The notes: generated from the sequence alone by a model not told the origin. A stretch of 24,000 bases of DNA from Candidatus Saccharimonadales bacterium (GCA_035479655.1 DATIIL010000005.1:166213-190212), one strand, 5' to 3'; positions 11,948 through 14,523 are shown, counted from the stretch's first letter. Numbers and translations: made by a program.

Positions 11948-12655
11948 TTAGACGACCACGATCTTCAGGCCCGGGGGCATGTCGCCGCCGAAGAAGCCGC
12001 GGATGTCGTCTTCGACCTGTTGCTGGATGCGCTGCCGCTCGGCCTCGTACGCCGCTTCAGCCGCTGCCGCCGCGCGCAGTTCGCCCGTCGGGTCGGCGAA
12101 GTCCATGATGACTCCTTCGACCAGCGGGTCGATGTTCTCGTCGTCCTTGTAGAGCGCGGCGACGCGCGTGAAGGCGACGTCGTCGTGCTCCAGGTTGACC
12201 GCCAGCACGTGGCTGACACCGTCGACCGAGAGCAGCCGCTCGCGCAGGCTGTCCAGGTCGTCGACCTGCGGCAGGTCGGCCCCGATGCAGACGTCGCCGC
12301 TCTTGAGCATGACGCTCATGAGGACGCTCTGCAGCGCCGCGATCAGCGTCTCCCGCTGGGCGGGGTCGCTGATGGTGACGGTGCCGATGGCCATGACGGT
12401 CTCGGTGCCGCCGTTGCCGTCGGGTCGCCAGCCGGACTCGGCGTCGTCCATGTCGTGCAGGTCGCGGTCCCAGACCACGGACTGCACGCCGGTGACGCCG
12501 GGGAGCTGAGTCAGCAGCACCAGGTGCTGCCAGTCGTTGGGCACCCGCCCGGCGACGCGGATCTCGATCTGGTCGGGCTCCGTGCCGGCGATGGCGGTGA
12601 ACGAGCCGAAGAACGGCTGGAAGAACGGCCGTTGGTTGTCGGGCGTCTCGAACAT
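11948..12655 (-). CDS. Hypothetical protein, GC-rich cassette cargo family 2 (235 aa)
   Basis: ORF 11948..12712 trimmed to the ATG at 12655 (MFETPDN...), which has AAGGAG 6 nt upstream. GC3 is high. The antisense ORF 11879..12730 is rejected. It shares long identical blocks with 13059..13598. Confidence 0.8.
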   Translation of the reverse strand: MFETPDNQRPFFQPFFGSFTAIAGTEPDQIEIRVAGRVPNDWQHLVLLTQLPGVTGVQSVVWDRDLHDMDDAESGWRPDGNGGTETVMAIGTVTISDPAQRETLIAALQSVLMSVMLKSGDVCIGADLPQVDDLDSLRERLLSVDGVSHVLAVNLEHDDVAFTRVAALYKDDENIDPLVEGVIMDFADPTGELRAAAAAEAAYEAERQRIQQQVEDDIRGFFGGDMPPGLKIVVV

Positions 12656-12694
12656 TCGAAACTCCTTGGTACTCTTCACTTCACTCGCCCAGTG

Positions 12695-12734
12695 CGAGCT
12701 AGCAAAAGGCAAAATATTACCTTCTGTTAGCTCG
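12695..12734 (-). promoter_or_regulatory. 5' leader hairpin of cassette X1
   Basis: The stem cgagcta (12695-12701) pairs with tagctcg (12728-12734), with an inner AAGG/CCTT helix and a ttgcctttt loop motif. The 3' arm can instead form CTCGC-actgg-GCGAG. Confidence 0.55.
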
Positions 12735-12812
12735 TACTGGACGCACTATCAAATACATTGTGTCTGCTAAGGTACTTAGCCATAGGCAAGAAGCCGTTGA
12801 CGAAGCGCACTT

Positions 12813-12841
12813 ATTATACAATTCGCGCGCTTTTATGTCAA
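12813..12841 (-). promoter_or_regulatory. Consensus promoter of cassette X1
   Basis: Minus strand reads TTGACA-17 nt-TATAAT exactly, 10 nt after the 3' end of HH-F. Confidence 0.75.
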
Positions 12842-12850
12842 CGGAGGTAA

Positions 12851-12903
12851 ACCGCTTTCGTCTTTTTAGACTCATCAGCATGAACACGCATTCATGGAGC
12901 GGT
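12851..12903 (-). ncRNA. Type III hammerhead ribozyme HH-F (canonical core)
   Basis: Minus strand reads ACCGC-TC|CATGAA-tgcgtg-TTCATG-CTGATGA-GTCT-aaaa-AGAC-GAAA-GCGGT. Predicted cleavage is 3' of the C at 12897. Confidence 0.9.
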
Positions 12904-13001
12904 AAAGCAGACACAGAGAGTTTGATAGTAGAGTAAGAAGTTGTTTCGTCCGAAGACGAAACACCAACCGCATCCACATCTCTCTGTGAATGCTTTACCG
13001 C
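12899..13001 (-). other. Long imperfect 3' UTR hairpin of cassette X2
   Basis: The 22 nt arms at 12899-12920 and 12980-13001 have the same 2 nt internal mismatch as X1. The apical 8 bp stem at 12943-12962 reads C(UUCG)G on the minus strand. Confidence 0.7.
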
Positions 13002-13058
13002 CCGTTGAAGGGCAGGCTACTCCCAGAGTGCATGGGTGAGGGTAGCGAGCCTTTCAGG

Positions 13059-13598
13059 TCAGACGACGTCCGCCAGGACCTCCTCGATCGTCTCCTCGAC
13101 ACTCGAGTCACCCTGGTACAGGATGGCGATCCGCGTGAGCGGGGCGCCGTGGAGGAGGTTGACCGCCAGCACGTGGCTGACACCGTCGACCGAGAGCAGC
13201 CGCTCGCGCAGGCTGTCCAGGTCGTCGATCGCCGGGATGTCCTCAACGATGCAGTAGTCGTCGTTCAGGAACATGACGCTCTCGATGACGCTCTGCAGCG
13301 TCGCGATCAGCGTCTCCCGCTGGGCGGGGTCGGCGATCGTGATGGTGGCGGTGGCCACGGTCGTGACGGCTTCCACGGCCTCGGCGGCGTTGTGGCTGTC
13401 GGCGAGGTCGCTCAACTCGTGCAGGTCGCGGTCCCAGACCACGGACTGCATGCCGGCGACGCCGGTGAGCAGGGTCTGCAGCACCAGGTGCTGCCACGCA
13501 TTCGGCACCTCGCCCATGATGCGGAGCTCGATGATCTCGGGCTTCACGCCGGCGGCGATGGTGACCGAACCGATGAACGGCACCCTGTCCTCGGACAT
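13059..13598 (-). CDS. Hypothetical protein, GC-rich cassette cargo family 2 (179 aa)
   Basis: ORF 13059..13697 trimmed to the ATG at 13598 (MSEDRVPF...), which has AAGGAG 7 nt upstream. GC3 is high. The antisense ORF 12990..13670 is rejected. Confidence 0.8.
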   Translation of the reverse strand: MSEDRVPFIGSVTIAAGVKPEIIELRIMGEVPNAWQHLVLQTLLTGVAGMQSVVWDRDLHELSDLADSHNAAEAVEAVTTVATATITIADPAQRETLIATLQSVIESVMFLNDDYCIVEDIPAIDDLDSLRERLLSVDGVSHVLAVNLLHGAPLTRIAILYQGDSSVEETIEEVLADVV

Positions 13599-13634
13599 GT
13601 GGTACTCCTTCGTGCTATATACTTCACTCGCCCA

Positions 13635-13680
13635 GTGCGAGCTACCAAAAGGCAACGAATTACCTTCTAGTAGCTCGCAC
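13635..13680 (-). promoter_or_regulatory. 5' leader hairpin of cassette X2
   Basis: A 10 bp stem pairs gtgcgagcta (13635-13644) with tagctcgcac (13671-13680). The loop carries ttgcctttt (minus strand). An alternative CTCGC-actgg-GCGAG hairpin lies downstream. Confidence 0.6.
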
Positions 13681-13761
13681 CGCAGGCGTACTATCAAACA
13701 AATCTAGTGTCTGCTAATGTGCTTTGCCATACGTAATAAAACCGATGACAAAGATAGTAAT

Positions 13762-13790
13762 ATTATACAATTTGATGTTGACTATGTCAA
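13762..13790 (-). promoter_or_regulatory. Consensus promoter of cassette X2
   Basis: Minus strand reads TTGACA-17 nt-TATAAT exactly, about 10 nt after the 3' end of HH-G. Confidence 0.75.
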
Positions 13791-13800
13791 CTAAGTATTG

Positions 13801-13853
13801 ACCGCTTTCGCTGTTTCCAGCTCATCAGCACAAATACACATTTGTGGAGCGGT
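13801..13853 (-). ncRNA. Type III hammerhead ribozyme HH-G (canonical core)
   Basis: Minus strand reads ACCGC-TC|CACAAA-tgtgta-TTTGTG-CTGATGA-GCTG-gaaa-CAGC-GAAA-GCGGT. Predicted cleavage is 3' of the C at 13847. Confidence 0.9.
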
Positions 13854-13949
13854 ATTGCAGACACAGGAGTTGTTAGTTTGGGGTGGGTTGTTCGGGTCCG
13901 AAGACGCCGAACTGGACACACCCACAGACTCCTGTGAATGCGCCACCGC
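13849..13949 (-). other. Long imperfect 3' UTR hairpin of cassette X3
   Basis: Arms gcggtattgcagacacaggag (13849-13869) and ctcctgtgaatgcgccaccgc (13929-13949) have two internal loops. The apical stem at 13890-13912 has a C(UUCG)G cap on the minus strand. The stop codon at 13957 lies 8 nt from the hairpin. Confidence 0.7.
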
Positions 13950-13956
13950 CCGCCGG

Positions 13957-14523
13957 CTACTCGATAAAGAAGGCGTTTTCCACGTCGAAGACGCGGTGCA
14001 GCACCTCCCGGTCGTTGTAGCGCAGCATGAGCAGGTAGTCCCGCTCGTCCGGGTAGTCAACGACCACCGCACGCCATTCGATACCGTCGATCTTCTGGAT
14101 ACCCTCGTAGAGGGAGTCTATGGTCTCGACCGTGGCAACGATGGTGTAGACACCGGTGAGGCTGGCTCCGAAGAGCGCCTCGAGCCGGACGATCACGTCG
14201 TCCATAGAGGCGTTGGCCTCCAGGGTGACCTTGCCGGTGGCGATGAACTCGCCCTCCGGGTTGGCGTCTGCCAGGAGCTCGCCGAGCTCCCGGTTCCAGA
14301 CGACGTTTTGCACGCCTTCGACGGTGGTTGGGCCAGCCGTCAGCAGGTCGATCTGACAGTCACAGGCCAGCAGGCCCGCGAGCTTCAGGGTGATCGACCC
14401 GTCCTCACCGCGCGATACCGCGACACTCGCCGTTACCGGCGCGTCGTGGGTACCACACAGGTGGTCGCTTCCCAACGCGTCTGCGCACGGCACGATACGA
14501 GTGGGCTGCGAGAGGATGGTCAT
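13957..14523 (-). CDS. Hypothetical protein, GC-rich cassette cargo family 2, divergent member (188 aa)
   Basis: ORF 13957..14547 trimmed to the ATG at 14523 (MTILSQP...), which has AAGGAG 5 nt upstream. It is colinear with X1 and X2 (VEGVQNVVWNRELGEL versus VTGVQSVVWDRDLHD). The antisense ORF 13798..14568 is rejected. Confidence 0.8.
   Translation of the reverse strand: MTILSQPTRIVPCADALGSDHLCGTHDAPVTASVAVSRGEDGSITLKLAGLLACDCQIDLLTAGPTTVEGVQNVVWNRELGELLADANPEGEFIATGKVTLEANASMDDVIVRLEALFGASLTGVYTIVATVETIDSLYEGIQKIDGIEWRAVVVDYPDERDYLLMLRYNDREVLHRVFDVENAFFIE

Follow-up and report, generated by a model that had tools for sequence, protein, structure and literature searches.

Are the guanine-plus-cytosine (GC)-rich genes that alternate with AT-rich DNA in a genome of Candidatus Saccharimonadales the residue of capture from another organism, or do they belong to the lineage that carries them? 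Here, we examined a stretch of 24,000 nucleotides (nt) of that genome (GCA_035479655.1, DATIIL010000005.1:166213–190212; hereafter, the window), in which positions 11948–14523 contain three such open reading frames (ORFs), designated cA, cB, and cC. Each of them is the cargo of a cassette, that is, of a recurring scaffold made up of a promoter, a 5′ leader, a 3′ untranslated region (UTR), and a hammerhead ribozyme, and the cassettes follow one another in an array. The original prediction, made from the sequence alone, was that foreign ORFs had been captured into a resident expression scaffold and, on the guess that the organism was an episymbiont associated with actinobacteria, that they came from its host or from the phages of the host. 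Saccharibacteria are known episymbionts of Actinobacteria, and the guess fits the taxon of the organism, a tiny soil bacterium of the Candidatus Saccharimonadales. As for the origin of the cargo, we arrived at a different reading, to which we give somewhat better than an even chance: the cargo consists of native, fast-diverging cassette genes, restricted to the lineage, whose high GC content at third codon positions (GC3) is maintained in place and is not the residue of a recent import.

Base composition of the cargo genes

The cargo ORFs cA (positions 11948–12655; 235 amino acids), cB (13059–13598; 179 amino acids), and cC (13957–14523; 188 amino acids) lie on the minus strand, and each has an ATG start codon and an AAGGAG-type Shine-Dalgarno sequence. 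Their GC contents of 0.686, 0.670, and 0.635 agree with the expectation of approximately two-thirds GC, and the expected bias at third codon positions was also found, GC3 being 0.945, 0.956, and 0.847 compared with 0.59–0.75 in the backbone genes of the window; GC content at second positions (GC2) was just 0.38–0.40 in all three. The four stretches that flank or separate cA, cB, and cC had GC contents of 0.455, 0.476, 0.475, and 0.416, so that the intervals are AT-rich (42–48% GC), as had been claimed. The backbone, which had been put at about 50% GC, turned out to be richer, with 57.5% for the whole window and 53–60% for the backbone genes. The contrast described between ORFs and scaffold is sharp at the start codon, from which the GC content climbs within approximately 15–30 nt, but not at the stop codon, past which it falls off gradually over approximately 75 nt.

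For pooled statistics, 21 cargo genes and 30 backbone genes were taken from three arrays of this metagenome-assembled genome (MAG), namely, the array of cA–cC, a second array at the left edge of the window, and a third on another contig. GC3 was 0.889 (range 0.78–0.98) in the cargo and 0.688 (0.59–0.78) in the backbone (Mann–Whitney p = 2e−9), and the two ranges touch only at approximately 0.78, confirming that the contrast in GC3 is real and far above chance. GC2 was 0.423 in the cargo and 0.430 in the backbone (Mann–Whitney p = 0.53), and the cargo value was lower than that of the Streptomyces phage phiC31 (0.484; p = 2.5e−6). At first codon positions (GC1), the values were 0.658 and 0.607, respectively (Mann–Whitney p = 0.001). 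The compositional chimerism is nearly all synonymous, with GC3 at approximately 0.9, GC2 unchanged, and a rise that begins at the start codon.

In the cargo, all two-fold codon families move toward G or C. AAG accounts for 97% of lysine codons (41% in the backbone), TTC for 94% of phenylalanine codons (42%), and GAG for 88% of glutamate codons (46%), while TGA serves as the stop codon in 10 of 21 cargo genes and in 3 of 22 backbone genes. The pattern that had been called typical of Actinobacteria was recovered, as codon usage of the high-GC-organism type together with a distant dinucleotide signature. The distance between the cargo and backbone signatures was 238, compared with 31–45 inside each class and 150 between the cargo and phiC31; this measure is confounded by codon choice and cannot decide between foreign origin and a codon regime private to the cargo.

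The GC-rich blocks might also be something other than genes, either a structured RNA payload or ORFs of the plus strand. Several frames are open over long spans, for example, at 11879–12730 on the plus strand, the first of three plus-strand ORFs that lie over the cargo genes (the others being 12990–13670 and 13798–14568) and begin within the conserved 3′ UTR (MLYRPLKGRLLPECMGEGS...), and very strong RNA structure is predicted. However, three-base periodicity is strong and confined to a single frame (GC content by codon position, 0.72, 0.39, and 0.95), and the Shine-Dalgarno sequences, ATG codons, and promoter direction all match the minus strand. Furthermore, protein motifs are kept among paralogues that are just 25% identical, and the fold of one cargo protein is predicted with confidence, as described below. 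The plus-strand ORFs are shadow frames because their first codon position sits on the GC-rich sites; such frames are artefacts produced by the high GC3 of the opposite strand, and a gene caller could be misled by them. A non-genic explanation is thus hardly credible.

Architecture and distribution of the cassettes

Each unit reads, on the minus strand, as a promoter, a 5′-terminal hairpin, a leader box UUAGCAGACAC, a long GAGCUA...UAGCUC hairpin, a Shine-Dalgarno sequence, an ATG codon, and the ORF; the ORF is followed by a structured 3′ UTR, by the trailer GUGUCUGCU, which is the complement of the leader box, and by a type III hammerhead, and the next promoter begins approximately 10 nt past the ribozyme. 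Four perfect or near-perfect TTGACA-17-TATAAT promoters were found on the minus strand.

All the parts located here are on that strand. In cassette C, the promoter (14679–14707; TTGACA-17-TACAAT with TG, 11 of 12 consensus matches) is followed by a 5′ leader of repeat family D9 (14524–14672), which contains the terminal hairpin, the leader box UUAGCAGACAC at 14630–14640, the GAGCUA...UAGCUC hairpin, and the Shine-Dalgarno sequence. Its 3′ UTR (13855–13956) ends in the trailer box UCCUGUGUCUGCAA (13855–13868), the complement of the leader box, and its hammerhead (13800–13854; 35.2 bits, E = 2.9e−4, with covariation) is predicted to cut at 13847/13846. Cassette B has a promoter with 12 of 12 consensus matches (13762–13790; TTGACA-17-TATAAT), a 5′ leader (13599–13755) whose leader box at 13707–13717 is paired to the trailer in the fold of minimum free energy, a 3′ UTR (12905–13058) with the trailer box at 12905–12918, and a hammerhead at 12850–12904 (41 bits, E = 6.7e−6; predicted cut, 12897/12896). 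In cassette A, the corresponding parts are a promoter at 12813–12841 (TTGACA-17-TATAAT, again with 12 of 12 matches), a 5′ leader at 12656–12806 with its box at 12760–12770, a 3′ UTR at 11795–11947 with the trailer box at 11795–11808, and a hammerhead at 11740–11794 (predicted cut, 11787/11786). The 3′ UTR of cassette A is a copy of repeat D8 and is 95% identical to the cassette B copy.

Between the units, no canonical terminator was found, and there was one terminator-like 3′-UTR hairpin without a U-tract; the ribozyme would therefore serve, in addition, to part one unit from the next. Between cassettes A and B, the flanks are 80–95% identical, and this likeness extends into the ends of the ORFs: the cassettes duplicate as whole units, scaffold and ORF together.

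The claim that hammerheads are present was upheld. Full-length matches to the Rfam family RF00008 scored 32–41 bits (E-values from 7e−6 to 2e−3), below the gathering score of 48.5 bits, at which the window has no match. The three hammerheads of the region share a CUGAUGAG ... CGAAA core and a CUC cleavage site, and the core columns were invariant in 42 distinct relatives, although the search pattern had fixed most of them. Strong covariation was found in the helices of these 42 copies: 92.3% of cells were paired, compared with 78% in shuffles and 26–48% in slid controls, there were 132 compensatory cells compared with 46.5 in shuffles, and 11 of 17 base pairs varied on both sides.

A pattern derived from the hammerhead was scanned against one genome per species for 185,579 species. 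The scaffold occurred at 118 or more genomic loci, one of them in a complete Nanosynbacter chromosome, and approximately 108 of the matches listed were labelled Saccharibacteria, Saccharimonadales, or Nanosynbacter. The same pattern had zero matches in 2.9 million viral contigs. Among the loci listed, the scaffold carries many unrelated cargo families, and most Saccharibacteria hold single cassettes. The part of the original prediction that described the scaffold as resident agrees with this distribution, which also marks the scaffold as modular. In the arrays, there is one hammerhead per 950–1110 nt, always on the minus strand.

To examine the pairing between leader and trailer, we took the 20 nt immediately upstream of stem III and looked 300–1300 nt upstream for an exact complement of 9 nt or more. 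Such a complement was present in 48 of 72 distinct cassettes, compared with 2 and 4 in two controls, and the two boxes covary by lineage, for example, CUGCUUGUCA with UGACAAGCAG and UUGGUUGUCUGUCG with CGACAGACAACCAA.

Single cassettes of the same design were also observed in two Nanosynbacter strains from the human mouth, TM7-053 (locus L038) and TM7-008 (locus L107, complete genome). The cassette of Nanosynbacter sp. TM7-053 (L038, 6620–7360) comprises a promoter, UGACAAG leader boxes, a CUUGUCA trailer, and a hammerhead, and its ORF of 130 amino acids has a GC3 of 0.70 in a locus of 45% GC. Because cultivated Nanosynbacter strains carry the cassette, the system is open to experiment.

Homologues of the cargo proteins and the question of foreign origin

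The proteins encoded by cA and cB are 57% identical, and that of cC is 29% identical to both; they belong to one family, which has eight members in this genome. The cA protein is identical to one encoded by a Candidatus Saccharimonadales MAG (GCA_964634155.1). When 5.8 billion proteins were searched with cA, the sole matches were cA itself and cB. An HMMER profile search of 1.84 billion representatives recovered the three proteins themselves, two paralogues from the third array, and one soil-metagenome protein, the remaining match being a repetitive fish protein, weak and at chance level. The soil-metagenome homologue lies on a contig of 954 bp and has a GC3 of 0.98, with AT-richer flanks that resemble a cassette 3′ UTR. 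The cA/cB/cC family had no matches in phage, plasmid, or viral collections, no relatives were confirmed by protein pattern in metagenome and viral contigs, and none of the cargo genes of the window matched a curated family. The second-array cargo gene c1a was likewise an orphan in the protein search. An AlphaFold2 model of cB built from six sequences consists of two ferredoxin-like halves (predicted local-distance score, pLDDT, of 82) and had no significant relative in PDB or BFVD. The cargo proteins are mostly soluble, with lengths of 120–360 amino acids; 4 of the 21 cassette genes encode single-pass membrane proteins, and the arrays include one DUF4419 protein.

These searches bear on the alternative that is closest to the original prediction, namely, that a resident scaffold recently captured the ORFs from the actinobacterial host or from phages of that host, with the high GC3 as leftover donor composition. 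The organism belongs to Saccharimonadales, the codon usage of the high-GC type and the TGA-rich stop codons are what a high-GC donor would give, and the dinucleotide signature of the cargo is very unlike that of the backbone (238) and closer to that of a Streptomyces phage (150), albeit confounded by codon choice. In addition, the DUF4419 cargo of the third array has homologues in Streptomyces and Kitasatospora with 46–49% identity. Apart from the taxon, these points weigh against a native cargo, as do several that are given below with the comparisons among genomes and with the possible causes of the high GC3.

Recent capture is nevertheless opposed by the cargo itself. No homologue of cA, cB, cC, or c1a was found outside the lineage in the 5.8 and 1.84 billion proteins or in the phage, plasmid, and viral collections; homologues of cA, cB, and cC were confined to the same MAG and one soil cassette, so that their closest homologues proved to be of the same lineage as the backbone. 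The GC2 of the cargo is like that of the backbone and below that of phiC31, and scaffold and ORF duplicate jointly. Integrases, transposases, and other mobility genes were not found in the Pfam lists of the called genes around the three arrays, nor were tRNA genes in the window or at the loci of the second and third arrays (L119 and L122). For DUF4419, an actinobacterial origin was not borne out by phylogeny: in a neighbour-joining tree, the Streptomycetaceae formed one tight clade, and the Saccharimonadales copies were placed outside it, among deeper metagenomic branches. Finally, as described in the next section, high GC3 persists in diverged paralogues and in related cargo of other genomes. 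Capture from Actinobacteria is therefore an improbable source of the cargo.

Persistence of high GC3 in diverged genes

At the loci listed from other genomes, the 400 nt upstream of the hammerhead had a GC content 6.5 points higher, and cargo GC3 was 0.62 compared with 0.53 for the background, being higher in 41 of 54 cassettes (p = 4e−5, with crude ORF calls). Clusters of related cargo from other genomes had a large estimated median number of synonymous substitutions per synonymous site (dS) of approximately 0.5–1.4, with GC3 of 0.59–0.74 in loci of 45–52% GC. The crudeness of the ORF calls in these GC3 and dS comparisons is among the points that weigh against our reading. The DUF4419 cargo of three genomes had a GC3 of 0.77–0.92 in loci of 48–58% GC, at 45–55% amino acid identity; one of these proteins, from another Saccharimonadales genome, has a hammerhead downstream (GC3 of 0.79, locus of 49% GC, 45% amino acid identity). 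These observations point to some force that keeps the GC3 of cassette genes high in Saccharibacteria, irrespective of where each family ultimately came from.

Within this genome, synonymous differences at conserved residues were counted in 12 pairs of paralogues, and 142 C↔G differences were found compared with 91 between strong and weak bases; in the young cA–cB pair, there were 7 and 4, respectively. Such an excess of C↔G differences is what a standing equilibrium at a GC3 of approximately 0.9 would predict, rather than a relaxation toward the backbone value of 0.69.

A separate observation concerns the divergence of cA and cB, for which the number of nonsynonymous substitutions per nonsynonymous site (dN) was 0.345 and exceeded dS (0.22). 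Their identity is a mosaic, in which segments of 90% identity stand beside a segment of 45%. This pattern could reflect diversifying selection, gene conversion, or a constraint on synonymous sites that lowers dS. Because such a constraint depresses dS, the ratio was not relied on, and a dN/dS value above 1 was set aside as proof of positive selection.

The mosaic and the excess of dN over dS are also in line with a frequent swapping of cargo among Saccharibacteria, or with its recruitment from an unsampled high-GC pool, with the conserved leader and trailer–ribozyme flanks acting as homology arms and the high GC3 arising as a by-product. That one scaffold carries many unrelated cargo families speaks for such an exchange, as do the somewhat raised GC content for approximately 75 nt beyond the stop codon and the slightly higher GC1, and according to a preprint (PMC10187176), Saccharibacteria are naturally competent. 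On the other hand, the scaffold between the cargo genes stays AT-rich, although constraint could account for that, GC2 is flat despite fast protein evolution, and no donor pool was found in the protein, metagenome, and viral searches. Exchange of this kind strikes us as unlikely, yet worth serious consideration, and we give a similarly low rating to the associated proposal that the high GC3 stems from recombination, through GC-biased gene conversion, or from the pool, and not from selection on the mRNA.

Predicted RNA folding and the proposed maintenance of high GC3

From the arrangement of these elements, we propose that each cassette is expressed as a self-contained transcript, which would start at its sigma-70 consensus promoter. 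The trailer would pair with the leader, enclosing the ORF in a panhandle, and the type III hammerhead would then cut a few bases past the trailer, leaving a defined 3′ end with a 2′,3′-cyclic phosphate. In thermodynamic predictions, the 3′ region of cassette B, when modelled in isolation, ties up the 5′ strand of stem III of its hammerhead in a long hairpin. When everything from the predicted start site onward is included, leader and trailer join in the panhandle, an intact three-way hammerhead stands right behind it, and the cleaved product retains the panhandle. These modelled folds suggest that the leader licenses the folding of the ribozyme, and that the mature mRNA may have both ends protected, its 3′ end being made by the ribozyme. 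The cargo would, in addition, follow a codon regime of its own, with a high GC3 that is specific to the cassettes and kept in place within Saccharibacteria. The force behind it might be selection acting on the mRNA, whether for its stability, for its expression or yield, or for insulation of the AU-rich folds of the leader, trailer, and ribozyme from the cargo. The anatomy, the conserved scaffold, the covariation of leader and trailer, the codon statistics, and the confinement of homologues to the lineage are results of this analysis; that the ribozyme cleaves itself, what the panhandle does, and which force acts on GC3 are inferred from them.

Among the candidate forces, selection on the mRNA is favoured as the likeliest, and the chief alternative is GC-biased gene conversion at recombination-prone cassettes. 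The cargo ORFs fold better than their synonymous-codon shuffles (z = −3.0, compared with −0.66 for the backbone; p = 1e−4), but so do phiC31 genes (z = −1.6) and a GC-rich island outside the cassettes (z = −3.1). The RNA-structure signal is therefore not specific to the cassettes, and selection for RNA structure was dropped as a demonstrated cause of the high GC3. Ordinary translational selection was also rejected, being unlikely because the ribosomal protein gene rpsP has a GC3 of only 0.59, the lowest in the window. Furthermore, some units of the arrays end in ordinary terminators and their cargo is still rich in GC3; therefore, the ribozyme alone cannot explain the high GC3.

A more radical explanation is suggested by a predicted architecture that would shield both ends of the RNA and by codon and stop usage that resembles that of Actinobacteria: the cassettes might produce nuclease-proof, ribozyme-trimmed mRNAs with host-type codons (AAG, TTC, GAG, and TGA), which would pass to the actinobacterial host and serve there as templates for fast-evolving effectors. 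Orphan proteins that diverge fast would suit that role. However, we identified neither machinery nor a signal for transfer, the cassettes have promoters and Shine-Dalgarno sequences of the resident type, and the 4 single-pass membrane proteins among 21 equally fit use in the cell’s own envelope. We rate delivery of mRNA to the host as very improbable and retain native genes, with GC3 maintained within Saccharibacteria, as our reading.

Other arrays and neighbouring genes

The second array (array 1) occupies positions 1–3216 of the window on the minus strand and runs on past the left edge into neighbouring DNA (locus L119). Its cargo ORFs at 186–752, 1094–1618, 1972–2535, and 2894–3160 have GC3 values of 0.81–0.91, and its hammerheads lie at 32–85, 935–989, and 1809–1862, with a CCGAUGAG variant at 2631–2683. 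The third array, on another contig (L122), has 14 called ORFs, 13 of which were used in the statistics.

Hammerheads at array ends carry CCGA(U/C)GAG in place of CUGAUGAG, so that U4 of the core is changed to C. These variants follow the first cassette of array 1 (window 2631–2683, minus strand) and the last cassettes of arrays 1 and 3 (L119, approximately 11590–11650; L122, approximately 15125–15185). The variant of L119 lies directly before an ordinary gene, with its Shine-Dalgarno sequence and start, whose GC3 is that of the backbone, and the variant core suggests that cleavage is weakened where the downstream gene needs read-through. Another hammerhead of the third array (L122, 6720–6880) has an insertion of approximately 100 nt in stem II, possibly an extra domain with a regulatory or structural role. 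Third-array cassettes without a hammerhead were found at L122 2853–3300, 5766–6166, and 9702–10000, with cargo GC3 of 0.78–0.92. These units end in hairpins, two of which are followed by a U-tract, and the hairpin after the DUF4419 gene is not; Rfam detected no other ribozyme class in them.

Directly after hammerhead A, a promoter (11693–11721) precedes the gene of an LPXTG protein (11009–11659; GC3 of 0.65) with a PTPP repeat. Beyond it lies the GC-rich island mentioned above, a minus-strand operon of two genes (8396–10887) with a GC3 of 0.79 and a raised GC2 of 0.45–0.47. It encodes a HATPase_c_3 protein of 556 amino acids and a partner of 270 amino acids, and the former has weak matches to PADLOC TmtA, to the BbrUII/HgiDII restriction-enzyme family, and to MutL-type ATPase domains. 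The operon's promoter lies near 10930 and its terminator near 8180–8215. As a single operon with its own promoter and terminator, it was ruled out as part of the cassette system; it differs from the cassette cargo in being one terminator-ended operon with raised GC2. It is likely a true island and, as a candidate for acquired defence genes, more conventional than the cassettes.

The housekeeping genes of the backbone comprise nusB, a NUDIX gene, the RNase III gene, rpsP, a KH-domain gene, and trmD. A gene for nickel superoxide dismutase (15459–15845, plus strand) and a haem-copper oxidase operon (18746–23539, minus strand) encoding COX1, COX2, COX3, and a UbiA-family prenyltransferase point to an oxygen-exposed lifestyle. 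A secreted protein of 341 amino acids, rich in serine, glycine, asparagine, and threonine, is encoded at 17622–18647 on the minus strand; its gene has internal repeats of approximately 90 nt (D6, D10, and D11), and the protein had no Pfam match.

Comparison with known systems

In prokaryotes, hammerheads are known to flank small, non-conserved ORFs (de la Pena & Garcia-Robles 2010; Perreault et al. 2011; Jimenez et al. 2011; PMC6155905), and their role there is an open question for which a link with phages is suspected (PMC6155905). The cassettes resemble these genomic hammerheads in being intergenic, often several close by, and in bracketing small ORFs of unassigned function. They differ in that the ribozyme here is of type III and a hallmark of one phylum, Saccharibacteria, and not of prophages, in that it belongs to a fixed frame of promoter, leader, and covarying leader–trailer pairing, and in that the enclosed ORFs have a distinct high-GC3 regime. 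Among open-access papers and preprints, we found none that links hammerheads or ribozymes with Saccharibacteria.

Like integron arrays, the cassettes are tandem, small, mostly orphan ORFs of varied families with a recurring structured element and an atypical composition. Integron cassettes are normally promoterless, whereas each cassette here has its own consensus promoter. In addition, the Pfam lists around the three arrays (window, L119, and L122) contain no IntI, and the recurring element is a ribozyme with a leader and a trailer rather than an attC site, although no formal attC model was run. Acquired genomic islands share with the cassettes a sharp contrast to the backbone in GC content, GC3, and dinucleotides. 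In the present case, however, the contrast runs gene by gene, is synonymous, and alternates with AT-rich native regulatory DNA approximately every 1 kb; it comes without donor homologues or mobility genes, and it persists in diverged paralogues and in other genomes.

Retrozymes, viroid-like RNAs, and Obelisks are units of approximately 1 kb bounded by type III hammerheads, to which Obelisks add an ORF of approximately 200 amino acids. The cassettes are similar in unit length (0.9–1.1 kb) and in having one type III hammerhead each, in the same orientation, but they are genes in chromosomal DNA, each with a promoter of its own. Because most Saccharibacteria carry single cassettes, no unit would be cut at both ends there. 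In arrays, by analogy with these RNAs, read-through followed by self-cleavage could free unit-length RNAs with 5′-hydroxyl and 2′,3′-cyclic phosphate ends, which could be ligated into circles; such circularised RNAs would make the arrays a chromosomal counterpart of viroid-like or Obelisk RNAs, a reading more modest than delivery to the host but likewise improbable.

The mRNAs of hok/sok-type systems fold back so that the 5′ and 3′ regions pair, and their 3′ end is produced by exonuclease trimming. The cassettes share with them a long-range pairing of leader and 3′ end that spans the ORF, and 3′-end processing as a likely control point. In contrast, the 3′ end here would be made by a ribozyme, the cargo is diverse and mostly soluble, at approximately 180–260 amino acids, and no antisense RNA or toxin is evident, although no search aimed at antisense promoters was made.

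For 15 years, bacterial hammerheads have been known beside small orphan ORFs with no function assigned to the link, and the cassettes now place it in a fixed architecture across a whole phylum. They have two measurable properties, a covarying pairing of the mRNA ends that is predicted to license ribozyme folding, and a private high-GC3 regime. For genomics, they are a caution: an anomaly in GC3 and signature that any island finder would score as foreign appears here to be native and actively maintained. For the biology of Saccharibacteria, the cassette proteins, of which this genome encodes at least 21, are lineage-restricted and fast-diverging and are therefore candidates for a part in the interaction between the epibiont and its host.

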